From Octopus vulgaris (taxonomy: Eukaryota), in assembly GCA_951406725.2 (NCBI GenBank), contig OX597816.1, forward strand, positions 2,728,001 through 2,792,000: a stretch of DNA of 64,000 nucleotides. Direction: 5' to 3'. The notes under the pieces are model-generated. The model worked only from the letters and a program-made list of their open reading frames with translations, did no database searches and was not told the origin of the DNA. Shown in pieces: positions 1,039 to 46,311 of the stretch (position 1 is the first letter of the stretch; every line of letters begins with the position of its first letter). The translations under genes were made by a program, and so were the position numbers.

Positions 1039-2111
1039 TCAGGTCATCCCATAAGTTCTGTCCGAATTTTGGATAAAGAATCCAAGTGATCAAATGTTAT
1101 ATTTAATTGAAGGTTAATCATCAATGTACTTTCCCTGATTATCTATGACTTACTTCCATCTATTTACAAGCTTTTTAATTCCATCAATGTAAAACTCTTT
1201 TGGTTTCAAAGCGAAGAACTCTGAAATGTCAGGTTCGACCTCCTCCTGGCTTGCGAAAGTTGTGTCCCCCTAATAATTCTGTAAACTATGGAACAAATGG
1301 TATCCTGAAGGAGTAAGGTCGGGAGAGTAAGTTGGATGAAGAAATTTTTCCAAACCGACCTCTTCGATCTTCTGTGATGTGATCTTTGCAGTGTGGGGTT
1401 GCGCATTGTCCTGATGAAACATCACTCGTTTTCGACTCACTAAAGCGGCTCTTTTTCCCTTCAAAGCTTGGTTCAAACACTCTAATTGCTGACAGTAGAT
1501 TTGAGCATTGATTGTTGCATTAGGTGGTAACAATATAAAGTGAATTACGCCTTTGCAATCGCACCAGATAGAGTAGAACCTTTTTCCCATGAAGTTCCTT
1601 TTTCGGTTGTGGTTGAGCATTTTCCCTTTTACCAAGCCACTGTTTACGACGTTTAACATTTCGATAGAAAATCCATTTTTCGTCACAAGTCTATCGAAAA
1701 AGGGTGAAATGGGTTTGCGAGAATGGAGAGAAGAGGAGATGTCAACTCGGGATTTGCGGTTGCTTTCGGACAATACATGAGGCACCTATTTTCCAAGTTT
1801 AGGAATCTTTCCAAGTTGTTGAAGATGACGATGAACTGTTGTATGGTTTGAAGTAAGCTTTATTGCCAATTCTTCAACTGATAATGACGGATTTTCTTCA
1901 AGTAATGCCTCAAGGAGCTTATCATCAAACTCAACTGGACATCCTATTCGATCTTCATCTTCAATTTTGCAAACGATCTCCTGCAAGTTCTTTCATTCAA
2001 GCACTTTCCCATAAAGTGAGTGTATGTTTCGAGTCACTTCGGCTGCAGAGTTACCTTTATTGTACACATAAAGAATTATATGTGCCTTAAATGCTCCTTG
2101 GATACTTCCAT
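1039..2111 (-). mobile_element. Degenerate mariner (DD34D) transposon; transposase pseudogene 2111-1114, 3' TIR 1039-1069
   Basis: MEVSKEHLRHI start, *VPHVL (WVPHEL), IWCDCKGVIH, FHQDNAQPH, YSPDLTPSGYHLF with 34 residues between D and the third catalytic site (D>G), GIKKLVNRW..NQGKYID; stops and frameshifts. Confidence 0.92.
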
Positions 2112-2488
2112 GTTGAAAGGGTTTTAATCAAAGCAATTTTAGGGTGTCCACGAAGTCTGGGTACATGGAATAAAATCATAACATAAACAAATATAAGAAA
2201 TAATAATTTCCGTAAAGACGGTGAAAATATTGTCAATTTCCCCAAACAGGGACACAATCCAATTTTTAAACAATAACCAAGGCCCCTTCTCCGAAAGGGG
2301 GAGGGTTATGGTTTACAATTATTTAACAAATGCAACACAACAACGTTTCCCTGACGACGAACCAACAAATGTAATTACAATAGTCAAACAGTAATAATAA
2401 TAACAACAAACCTTTTTAATTTATCCCCATTTATGTGAAACCACTTATTCAAGTTCAAGTCATTCATGCAATTTTATACGAATTGCTA

Positions 2489-2564
<76 letters not shown>

Positions 2565-2699
2565 ACACGCACACACACATAATAAGGGTGAAAATTGAAT
2601 ATTAATTTGATCAATATGAATTGAAAACCAGTGGTGTAGCATATAAGACCATAGCGGATCTTCTTCTAGCAAAATGGATGACCACTGTTAATGGTTCAT

Positions 2700-2959
2700 C
2701 CCTGTTATCTAATACTTTCACTTTAATAGTTTCAGTATTAAAGTGAATGTCTGCATTACAATAGAGAGATGTTTTTGTTTCACTTTTAACACGTAATACT
2801 GAAATAGTGGAGAAGATATGATATTGCTGTGGGGTCGCTCTAGGGAAAAACTTAAAATTTTTTTGCCGATGTCACTCCCAGGAGTAAGGCATGTGTAAAA
2901 TTTGAATGAAATTGGTTGTGTAGTTCTCAAGTTTTAGGGAAACACACAGACAGACAGGC

Positions 2960-3008
<49 letters not shown>

Positions 3009-3038
3009 CACATTCTCAGTTTTATATATATATAAAGA
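2700..3038 (-). mobile_element. Non-autonomous Helitron-like element, 5' part
   Basis: Minus strand starts A|TCTTTATATATATATAAAA, then (GTCT)n, then AACTACACAACCAATTTCATTCAAATTT, the layout of microsatellite-bearing invertebrate Helitron derivatives; 3' hairpin/CTAG not seen. Confidence 0.5.
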
Positions 3039-3692
3039 TATTGAAAAAAATGTGTTTTTATATTCCTGTAATTTCACACACACACACACGTGCATATGTA
3101 TCATACACGATGTCGCCGAATCCACCGAGCTGCAGCCTGCCGCCAAAGTGGCGCGAGCACCCGCTCATCATCCTGTCCGAAACAAGTGGGCCTAAAAATA
3201 AGGAAAATAACTTTGTCAGCATTCATAACACGTGACCCGCACTGGACATTACGAACCTAAACACTTGGAAGCCATCTTGAATTTCAAAACTTCTACTCCG
3301 TTGCTAGGTGGTTGCTACGCTCCACGAAACTTTAAGTCATGTGGTGTTGAATTGAACTGTTATTAAAAATAAACCTGTAACTCCTACCACATCTGTTCAC
3401 TGCTACTTTCGTTCGTTCGTTTACTCACTCACAGGTGCGCGCACGCACACACACACACACACACACACAACGACAAATAAACAACATGTAAAAAAAACAC
3501 CAACAAAAACATCACTAAAATAGGCTTGGAATTTGGCCTAGATAAGTGTGTTTAGAACCACATTCCAAAAATGGAAAATTGTTGGCGATACAAAAGAAGG
3601 AATGATTTTAATCAAAACACACACACACACAAACACACACACATATAAATTGTGTGTATGTGTGTGCATATGTATACATACACACATACATA

Positions 3693-24509: not shown

Positions 24510-24758
24510 TGGTAATTCAAACATGAATGTTTCGTTCATCATCCTTAATCAACCCTTATTCAGGGACCTTTTGAGCGGGATGGGTTACTCGACCAGAAGA
24601 AAATTCTAACTGGGCCCCACCTGCAAAGTGATGTGTTGTTTATCTTGATATGTGATCACCATGTCGCACACATATGGTTGTGATGCATGTGCCTGGTGTA
24701 CCCTTATCAGACGGGTAGTCATGATGGGTATACTGGGCTTCGTATATTTTACCCCAGC
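24510..24758. mobile_element. Partial copy of the (TAA)n-flanked element at 45201-45746
   Basis: Near-identical to 45470-45710. Confidence 0.85.
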
Positions 24759-25236: not shown

Positions 25237-27074
<1,838 letters not shown>

Positions 27075-43698: not shown

Positions 43699-43844
43699 CA
43701 TATATACACACACACACACACATGTACATATAGACATACGCATATATCTATCCACGTAATACTCGTGTCACACGCACCTGCATACAGACATAGGCAGAGA
43801 CACACAACGTGCACACACACACACGCTCACGAATAGAGATGCAT

Positions 43845-44309
43845 GGCTTCTGTGCCGGTGGCACATAAAAAGCACCATCCGAACGTGGCCGATGCCAGCG
43901 CCGCCTCGACTGGCTTCCGTGCCGGTGGCACATAAAAAGCACCATTCGAACGTGGCCGATGCCAGCGCCGCCTTGGATGGCTTCCGTGCCGGTGGCACAT
44001 AAAAAGCACCATCCGAACGTGGCCGATGCCAGCGCCGCCTTGGCTGGCTTCCGTGCCGGTGGCACATAAAAAGCACCAACTGATCGTGGCCGATGCCAGA
44101 CTCCTCTGGCATCTGTGCAGGTGGCACGTAAAAAGCATCCACTACACTCTCGGAGTGGCTGGCGTTAGGAAGGGCATCCAGCTGTAGAAACACTGCCAGA
44201 TCAGACTGGAGCCTGGTGCAGCCTCCTGGCTTCCCAGACCCCGGTCGAACCGTCCAACCCGTGCTAGCATGGAAAGCGGACGCTAAACGATGATGATGAT
44301 GATGATGAT
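43845..44309 (+). mobile_element. SINE-like element with 67 bp internal tandem array and RTE-type tail
   Basis: Units start 43845, 43912, 43979, 44046; then GGCGTTAGGAAGGGCATCCAGCTGTAGAAAC and (GAT)n tail. Confidence 0.8.
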
Positions 44310-44717
44310 ATGCCTACAAAGAGACGACGTGCGCTTCCCTATCTCTCCCTATCTCTCCCCATCTCTCTCCATCTCTTCCGCGGTGTTCCTAATGTAAGTG
44401 TAAAGTGAATCCACTTCGTAAGTCCCCCCCCCCACACGTGTAAGATTCCATCCAACTTGTCTTATCTTGACCGACGGTACCCATCAACGAAGATGGGAAG
44501 TTAATTTCATTGGGAACCTCTTTCGATTCTTCTCATTTGCTATCAACGTCAGCTTCCGTCACTAAAGGTCATCTAGGAAAAGCTTCGTTGAAATATCCAA
44601 TGAAAATTTTATAACCGTTTAACTACATACAGTTCTATAGTTAAGAGACGAGCAATTATGGACATTATTTACATTATTTATATTCGACAGATATTTGCCC
44701 TCATCTTGTTTGTTGTT

Positions 44718-44763
44718 AACACAACATTTCGGCTGATATATCCTCCAGCCTTCATCAGGTGTC
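44718..44763 (-). ncRNA. Minimal type I hammerhead motif (left arm)
   Basis: GACAC-CTGATGA-A-GGCTG(loop)CAGCC-GAAATGTT-GTGTT; C>T in stem III. Confidence 0.7.
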
Positions 44764-45006
44764 TTGGGGAAATTTTGAACCTGGGGTTTCATTCCTAAGG
44801 CATTTTCGATGTTATCATCATCATCATTATTATTCAGGTCACTGCCTGGAATCGAACTCGGAATCTTAGTGTTAGTAGGCCACTTAACTACACCATATGC
44901 TGTGGGCCACTTAACTCTTAACCACTACGCCATACGGGCATATGGTGTAGGGGTTAAGAGCGCAGGCTACTAACCTCAAGATTTTGAGTTCGATTCCAGG
45001 CAGTGA

Positions 45007-45092
<86 letters not shown>

Positions 45093-45200
45093 TTAATAAT
45101 AATATTAATAATAATATAATAATAATATTAATAATATTAATAATGATAATAATAATATTAATAATATAATAATAATATTAATAATAATAATAATAATAAT

Positions 45201-45746
45201 AAGTACCAGGCAGAGGCTCTCATGGCTTCTGATCTTAACTGATTGGAAGTGTTATCATGTACATTGTTTTGTCTTGGTATAAAAGATCGGCTACAGCAAA
45301 TATTCTGCTCAATACCACAGATTTGCTTGTCAGTTGTTTGACCGTAACCTGTTGAGCATGTCCCTTAGTGGCTGACGATATGTGCATCTCTGATCACGAA
45401 CAGAAGTAGTGGGGGAGCATCATAGCCGTATGTTGAGAGGGATTCTTTGGGGTTTGAATAATTCACCTCTGGAAACATGGGTGTTTCGTTCAACATCCTT
45501 AAACAACCCTTACTCAGGGACCTTTTGAGCAGGATGGGTTACTCGACCAGAAGAAAATTCTAACTGGGCCCCACCTGCAAGGTCATGTGCTGTTTATCTT
45601 GATATGAGATCATCATGTCGCGCACATATGGTTGTGATGCATGTGCCTGGTGTACCCTTATCAGACGGGTAGTCATGATGGGTATACTGGGCTTCGTATA
45701 TTTTACCCCAATGTTACTTTGATGGCATGCACTGCTCTCTCACTCA
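45201..45746. mobile_element. Non-coding element inserted in the (TAA)n of the palindrome's right arm
   Basis: (TAA)n on both sides, absent from the left arm, second copy at 24510-24758. Confidence 0.8.
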
Positions 45747-45812
45747 ATAATAATAATAATAATAATAACATACCTTAGGAATGAGAACCCATGTTCGAAA
45801 TTTCCCCAAGAA

Positions 45813-45858
45813 GACACCTAATGAAGGCTGGAGGTTATATCAGCCGAAACGTTGTGTT
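45813..45858 (+). ncRNA. Minimal type I hammerhead motif (right arm)
   Basis: GACAC-CTAATGA-A-GGCTG(loop)CAGCC-GAAACGTT-GTGTT; G>A in CUGAUGA. Confidence 0.7.
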
Positions 45859-46311
45859 AAGAACAAACAAGATGAGGACAAATATCCGTCGAATGTAAAT
45901 AATGTAAATAATGTACTTTTAACTACATTGGACGTTTCTTTTCTTTAGAGAATTGGTACCAATTCTAGCAATCAATTTTGAATTTCAACATTAATGTTGT
46001 TGGTCATGCTAAGACAAAACTGTAATCTCAATAAACAGATGCAAATGTATTCTTAAAATTAATTCACTCACGCAAAAAAAAAAAAAAAAAAAAAAAACTT
46101 ATAGAAGAAATTTAGAAAAGTTTCTGTTCGGAGATCATGCTATTTTTTCTATATAAGATCGAAGAACGCTCTGTGGTTAACATGTAACTTAGGGGCTTGA
46201 AAAAGGGTTAAAGTACACTGATCCGAAGTGACGACAGTGACATCCCATAGTTCTATGAAGAGAACTGGTGAAATCCCCAAATTCTGTTTAGCGAACTCCT
46301 TCATTATGTAT

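Follow-up and report, generated by a model that had tools for sequence, protein, structure and literature searches.

What kind of element forms the palindrome in this stretch of octopus DNA, and which machinery placed it there? The window, meaning the whole stretch of 64,000 nucleotides that was analysed, carries two arms whose tRNA-like heads meet in the middle and whose hammerhead-bearing tails point outward. An earlier note had read this arrangement as a self-cleaving SINE, with RNA polymerase III (Pol III) as its transcribing enzyme, in which a tRNA-derived head was fused to the tail of a Penelope-like element (PLE) and which a PLE reverse transcriptase (RT) mobilised. It is near certain that the feature belongs to the PLE class rather than being a chimeric SINE; the palindrome is a short, decayed copy of a PLE end repeat. 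The likely origin of the palindrome is that an autonomous PLE inserted a short inverted pair of its terminal repeat here; RNA of this element likely begins at the tRNA-like head, with Pol III as the likely polymerase.

Both head-to-head arms do exist, with 93% complementarity between segments 44662-44765 and 45811-45914 and 87% between the heads. The B boxes, the A-box-like motifs (from 44943, and from 44922 in reverse) and the (AAT)n linkers were found in both arms, as first described, and each arm can fold into hammerhead stems I and II, with the GUU ending at 45853. The insertion extends from 44629 to 45917 and carries an 11-bp target duplication, TTTAACTACAT, on both sides; the palindrome originally placed at 44661-45916 stands, but its bounds do not, since 33 bp more belong to it on the left. 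A 545-bp repeat inside the right linker had also gone unmentioned. The hammerhead quoted in the earlier note proved to be a composite of the two arms: its motifs all occur, but not in a single intact copy, because CTGATGA is confined to the left arm, paired there with GAAATGTT, and GAAACGTT to the right arm, paired there with CTAATGA, a broken core. The duplication seen at the centre is present, with GGCCACTTAACT occurring twice in the left head (44878 and 44905); it is a rearrangement of the left head of this copy, and the exact duplication was not seen among the other family junctions inspected. The window copy is decayed. The peptide of its right arm matches the N-terminus of a full-length relative, P0003 (10/17, E=7e-4). 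The features are collected in Table 1.

Table 1. Features of the palindromic insertion and its flanks, in window coordinates.
Feature	Position	Strand	Basis
Left target-site duplication, TTTAACTACAT	44618-44628	+	Flank comparison
One-sided extension of 33 nt, termed "tail" for PLEs, which is coding sequence from the PLE ORF	44629-44661	-	
Left arm, PLE ORF 5' end with the hammerhead; ATG at 44792	44662-44811	-	
Minimal type I hammerhead of the left arm; CUGAUGA and GAAA are intact, AUGU replaces ACGU in the stem III palindrome	44718-44763	-	
Left (AAT/GAT)n linker	44812-44834	-	
Left tRNA-like head, rearranged by internal duplication; A box 44922-44932, B box 44848-44859	44833-44938	-	
Right tRNA-like head; A-box-like motif 44943-44953, B box 44986-44997; likely RNA 5' end	44936-45012	+	
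Right-arm (AAT)n linker, expanded	45011-45202	+	
Unrelated 545-bp non-coding repeat within the right (AAT)n linker, foreign to the element	45203-45748	+	
Right arm, PLE ORF 5' end; ATG at 45781, 45 open codons, without extension	45765-45917	+	
Right minimal hammerhead, broken core CUAAUGA; predicted cut after 45853	45813-45858	+	
Right target-site duplication, TTTAACTACAT	45918-45928	+	

The repeat within the right linker belongs to an abundant non-coding family of ~560 bp, whose copies are ~95% identical and which was encountered in 19 of 120 random stretches. It sits in (AAT)n tracts, often the linker of the PLE, and a part copy lies at 24519-24756 of the window. Neither a long ORF nor a partner was found for it; it may be the non-autonomous element of a LINE that targets microsatellites. 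At two further loci a LINE fragment, with what we take to be restriction-like endonuclease-type sequence, is inserted in the (AAT)n linker (L060 after 1640 and L142 after 2300, oriented), and these fragments suggest that the genome contains an autonomous AAT-targeting LINE. Just upstream of the palindrome, a 67-bp tandem repeat (43840-44143; 3.8 copies, 94% matches) begins another interspersed repeat. Elsewhere in the window, a 372-codon open frame (25275-26393, forward strand) resembles in its motifs the C-terminal half of an L1/Tx1-type LINE ORF2, and a 171-codon frame (1270-1785, reverse strand) a fragment of a mariner transposase.

To place this copy within its family, the genome (2.8 Gb in 227 contigs) was searched with the tail, the head and the left arm, each of which returned about 2,000-3,400 first-look candidates. 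Of 120 ten-kb stretches, sampled at fixed, round coordinates, 21 contained parts of the family, and the feature is therefore not a product of chance; extrapolation from this proportion gives ~49,000 insertions in the genome as a whole (Poisson range about 30,000-75,000). Tails diverge by ~5-7% from the family majority. The expectation that head and tail are co-linear throughout the genome was borne out, a co-linear tail accompanying 22 of 29 head-seeded loci and a co-linear head 43 of 58 tail-seeded loci. Among 88 loci, most of them chosen by similarity and with arm counts that are not independent, 49 inverted tail-out pairs were identified, and adjacent tails were inverted in this orientation in 47 of 50 cases. 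A ~33-nt extension was present on exactly one arm in 48 of the 49 pairs; 29 of the 88 loci had been seeded with an extension-containing query, which forces at least one extended arm but not exactly one. Target duplications, which vary in length between insertions, flanked 33 of the 49 pairs, as against 1 of 300 mismatched flank pairs, and the two arms of an insertion have diagnostic variants in common (p=9e-4 and 3e-7). Junctions differ among insertions, and the longer arm can be either one (17 and 15 cases, with 16 equal). A model of fold-back junctions with fixed orientation was rejected, as the AC/GT spacer is found in either orientation with respect to the extension and neither arm is consistently the longer. 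Reported PLE traits include inverted pLTRs and one-sided extensions (Craig 2021; Goubert 2022), Craig 2021 describing an inverted, 5'-truncated copy with 30-40 bp of extension at one end.

The partner of these short copies is the element itself, whose ORF was traced from the sequence upstream of the heads. Four heads have common upstream sequence, which at one locus (L129) encodes an RT thumb and an endonuclease, and the unit reads as head, (AAT)n, ORF, stop, ~30 nt and next head, the ORF comprising an ATG, an in-frame minimal hammerhead, an N-terminal domain, the RT and a putative GIY-YIG-type endonuclease. A head follows the ORF stop by ~30 nt in 29 of 30 ORF-end loci, eight of which represent one duplicated segment, and in 21 of 22 once the seed is removed and that segment collapsed. 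A 5' walk reached a PLE RT and, at two loci (L175 and L177), the tail running directly into the ORF; these and two others (L364 and L367) show a partial tandem pLTR layout, and in the tandem copies head and linker precede the ATG. In the PLE ORF, the tail makes up the opening ~160 nt, with the ATG at tail position 21 (45781 in the window), and the hammerhead lies in frame within the coding sequence. The majority reading from this ATG is open over 287 of 287 codons. Length variants of 3 and 9 bases, common in the family at tail positions 87-90 and 128-137, keep the frame, in agreement with a tail that is coding in source copies.

The whole ORF spans ~835 aa and is 56% identical to P0003 over residues 11-831. 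Its RT domain matches RVT_1 in Pfam (E=2.7e-6), and the motifs DKG, YGLPK, RYVDD and CVYxIPC/YxGET occur in this order, the last of which we take to mark a GIY-YIG-type endonuclease. That assignment draws on motifs and on homologues and is best regarded as probable: the Pfam GIY-YIG model gave no score on a copy examined (L198), and of 2744 homologues at E<=1e-30, PF01541 is annotated on three among the 120 listed. Not one of 59 long loci holds an intact copy, the longest open stretch being 569 aa. Eight metagenome relatives are short and 34-42% identical, and no A/B-box head was seen by eye in four of their 3' ends. We consider the structural reading, namely the unit order and the PLE identity, near certain. 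An RT and GIY-YIG-type ORF, a pLTR tandem, an inverted copy with a one-sided extension and a minimal hammerhead in the pLTR, the features that define EN+ PLEs, are all found here.

Other PLE families were considered as the partner and rejected. A Pfam GIY-YIG search of the genome gave 150 matches, and the 50 loci examined were other PLE families or host nuclease, none ending in the tail. L198 lacks a visible CxxC linker between RT and endonuclease, unlike another PLE family of the same genome; a Zn-finger linker at this place is absent from the Penelope/Poseidon clade. A young family (L067, L072 and many others) has a 781-codon frame that is open in many copies of identical score; its endonuclease is preceded by a CxxC linker, and its long 3' region is repetitive, a pattern search finding no hammerhead there. 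Several further PLE families are also present. Two further observations concern copies of the element itself. In L032 (1501-1800), an internal deletion joins the ORF start straight to the downstream head, a possible non-autonomous derivative. At least eight places on one contig (C31: L150, L152, L154, L159, L160, L161, L168 and L169) carry a single PLE insertion with identical flanks, which is a segmental duplication or a large tandem repeat.

These results change the earlier interpretation in part. Mobilisation by a PLE RT was correctly proposed. The tail does match a PLE, although not as a sequence joined to a foreign head: it is the ORF start of a PLE that bears the head itself. A separate SINE formed by fusion of a tRNA head and a PLE tail is accordingly not upheld, and assignment to the class of tRNA-derived SINEs was rejected; A/B boxes are present, but the head lies within an autonomous PLE, the tail is coding and no variant sets the short copies apart as a lineage. 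A separate head-only SINE family is likewise not supported, with 3 of 29 head-seeded loci lacking a tail within 1 kb, one of them with another element in the linker. A non-LTR retrozyme of the Sm-alpha type does not agree with the predominantly inverted tails or with a hammerhead that is minimal and coding.

The majority hammerhead corresponds to the minimal type that Cervera and de la Pena describe for PLEs; the tail was correctly identified as PLE sequence with such a motif. Its core is intact in the family majority and in 78 of 130 individual copies, the sole common non-CpG change affecting the free N7 position (T in 98 and A in 32 of 133). As in metazoan PLE minimal hammerheads, stem I has 5 bp, stem II is long, a single unpaired base follows A9, a G10.1-C11.1 pair is present and positions 15.2-16.2 are palindromic (PMC4209133). 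Rfam gave no hammerhead match in the window region or in near-majority tail copies. Self-cleavage is predicted from the sequence, and the hammerhead would probably stay uncut during insertion; for an anole PLE in vitro, cleavage is reported to be protein-assisted and dispensable for insertion (PMC11167929).

That anole element, Poseidon of Anolis carolinensis (PAc, Penelope/Poseidon clade), is similar to the octopus PLE in its single RT and GIY-YIG ORF, its tandem pLTRs and its one-sided extension of 30-40 nt (PMC11167929). The PAc ORF is described as beginning at the hammerhead, both target strands being nicked and extended and two internal RT starts within the early ORF bounding the extension (PMC11167929). 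Unlike in PAc, where the start codon lies at stem II, the ATG here is ~30 nt upstream of the hammerhead, and, unlike PAc as described, the octopus element carries a tRNA-like head with an (AAT)n linker between head and ATG (PMC11167929). Opposite-strand hammerhead pairs 100-700 bp apart are reported from Schistosoma (PMC4209133).

The head lies ~100 nt upstream of the start codon. Its majority contains TGGCGTAGTGG and GAGTTCGATTCC about 32 nt apart as putative A and B boxes; both agree with the Pol III consensus quoted in PMC8969392 and their spacing is as expected, so that the Pol III-type boxes first noted for the head hold in motif and spacing. ARAGORN predicted 0 genes in the window, and a relaxed run on one head returned an unrelated fold; Rfam detected no tRNA in the head at E<=10, nor in the window region or near-majority head copies. 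The best match among genomic tRNAs from 30 loci was Arg-TCG, with 48 of 71 aligned positions, only slightly ahead of other isotypes. Octopus tRNA-derived SINEs were reportedly described by Ohshima and Okada in 1994 under the names OK, OR1 and OR2; like the head here they are tRNA-related repeats, from probably the same group of animals. The proposed identities of head and tail draw on motifs, on alignment to genomic tRNAs and on the published description of the minimal hammerhead.

Arms that reach the head start usually stop there (44 of 46 arms in tail-seeded loci, 32 of 34 in head-seeded loci and 6 of 8 in random ones), and the end rate per base at this point is ~12 times that within the head. 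The inverted arms of long copies stop at the head start in only 3 of 11 cases (Fisher p=1.3e-5; nine duplicate loci were left out of this comparison, and arms are not independent); the hairpin at that position is therefore no intrinsic block. Seeding with the ORF start, for which 13 of 40 matches were retrieved with 500 bases each, yielded two loci with a full sense head upstream (L364 and L367), both starting at the head and preceded by unrelated flank with no ORF-side leader, and a third joined at the hairpin. Short and long copies showed no diagnostic differences in 137 short versus 52 long tails, a small sample relative to the family, which gives the view of the short copies as a lineage of their own no support. 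Summed depth from the ORF end to the head rises only 1.6- to 3.3-fold, a measure that does not represent copy number, and the depth step at the head is smaller than locus counts suggest.

A further question is which polymerase produces the ORF RNA. The run TTTT is absent from the 2,505 nt of the majority ORF, compared with 28 AAAA runs, and 1-12 TTTT runs occur in each of nine control PLE ORFs; at any one site, TTTT was seen in at most 4 of 37 copies in the 3' part and in at most one copy in the 5' part. The probability of such absence is 0.026 with the codon usage of PLEs from the same genome, and none of 3000 simulations with the relatives' codon usage reproduced it; a strict shuffle of the element's own codons gave 0.33 and 0.11 for the two ORF parts, and low Phe content is common to the element and its relatives. 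The element was also compared with sequencing runs of three organism labels. RNA-seq reads under a related species label run about equally in both directions, 77-82% of them continuing into unlike sequence, and form no start or end pile-ups, which such libraries cannot reveal; reads over the element are mostly passengers. Pol III RNAs are uncapped, and translation of such an RNA would therefore need another route. Pol III has been argued to be too weakly processive for autonomous elements (PMC10886601), and the Drosophila Penelope promoter is described as TATA-less and LINE-like (PMC2377424). Judged from sequence features, the chances that Pol III transcribes the ORF RNA appear about evenly balanced.

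Under the preferred explanation, the PLE protein would nick both target strands ~10-14 bp apart and prime one cDNA per nick, using two sites within the RNA that lie ~33 nt from each other, as in the anole PLE. The two cDNAs would then join head-to-head, often at the self-complementary GCCC-AC-GGGC of the RNA 5' end. Priming near the RNA 5' end would give palindromes of SINE size ending at the head, the window copy among them, and priming at the downstream repeat would give long, 5'-truncated ORF copies. Sharp ends at the head and variants common to short and long copies would both follow if one transcript starts at the head and RT is primed at either repeat. In its fullest form, which we hold only tentatively and judge to fall a little short of an even chance, the explanation states that the whole 2.5-kb ORF is transcribed by Pol III from a tRNA promoter captured in the pLTR, with terminators purged and translation independent of a cap, and that the tens of thousands of SINE-like palindromes are by-products of internal RT starts.

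The main competitor, which we consider unlikely, is an ordinary PLE transcribed by Pol II that once captured a tRNA-derived SINE in its 3' UTR, so that the boxes are passengers and the short copies are 5' truncations at a hotspot formed by the GCCC-AC-GGGC hairpin. Such a hairpin is indeed predicted at the head start, copy depth declines smoothly toward the ORF 5' end as in ordinary truncation, no variant separates short from long copies, and the bidirectional RNA-seq reads without end pile-ups agree with it, although the libraries cannot reveal such ends. Yet long-copy inverted arms pass the hairpin in 8 of 11 cases, as against 4 of 54 tail-seeded and random arms together; the ORF-start copies with a full head also begin at the head (2 of 2), and the lack of TTTT in the ORF argues in the same direction.

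Dual use of the element, which we regard as rather improbable, would combine an ORF mRNA made by Pol II with a short RNA that the head drives through Pol III, on the terminal repeat or on solo short copies, and that is mobilised in trans, in effect a SINE born inside its own PLE. The sharp 5' boundary at the head suits this arrangement, as do the ORF 3' end lying beside the head in only 2 of 21 random insertions and extended solo arms that correspond to ORF nt 1-163, near the 172 nt reported to be needed for activity of the anole PLE (PMC11167929). It is, however, opposed by the lack of a short-copy lineage or diagnostic variants (p=0.69 at tail 59 and p=0.44 at tail 128), seeding confounding the only difference between short and long copies in the head, and it leaves the TTTT-free ORF unexplained. 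Dual use is compatible with the best explanation and is the reading closest to the idea of the earlier note. A palindromic, MITE-like DNA transposon moving as a whole would account for terminal inverted arms and target duplications, but varying junctions, ends asymmetric by 33 nt, target duplications of varying length and, decisively, arms continuous with an RT ORF leave it virtually no chance.

With inverted-pair insertion of an autonomous PLE repeat as the preferred reading, the element can be set against known systems that link Pol III promoters to mobile repeats. Schistosoma already offers the combination of a Pol III promoter and a hammerhead in the SINE-like repeats Sm-alpha and Sj-alpha, in which a tRNA-related promoter precedes the hammerhead, as it does here (PMC6765202, PMC2770079). 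Those repeats differ in being non-coding and often tandem, in having canonical hammerheads and in having no partner named in the text available (PMC6765202, PMC2770079), whereas the octopus unit consists of an autonomous PLE's terminal repeat and ORF start and occurs as inverted pairs. Metazoan PLE hammerheads, as far as described in PMC4209133, are not linked to a Pol III promoter, unlike the one here. The TRIMp3 elements Cassandra, Helenus and Ajax similarly carry a small-RNA-derived Pol III promoter in the terminal repeat (PMC10886601). They are, however, non-autonomous LTR elements of <1.3 kb, in contrast to a 2.5-kb protein-coding PLE, and their autonomous partners are argued to require Pol II (PMC10886601; Kojima 2024). 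Within the literature searched, a scope outside which Repbase and Dfam lie, we found neither a PLE with a tRNA-type promoter nor a PLE-mobilised SINE.

Autonomous retrotransposons are taken to be transcribed by Pol II, with Pol III promoters confined to short, non-autonomous elements (PMC10886601). If the proposed explanation is true, a terminator-free, protein-coding PLE with a tRNA-type promoter would break this Pol II-only rule and prompt one to ask how translation proceeds on an uncapped RNA. SINE-like elements may then arise inside their partner rather than by fusion. Standard annotation pipelines would probably split this family of ~50,000 insertions into a "tRNA SINE" and a "Penelope" entry. 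How inverted pLTRs and one-sided tails form is still regarded as unexplained (Craig 2021), and the many short copies of the octopus family, with a defined RNA 5' end, would offer a clean record of that process.
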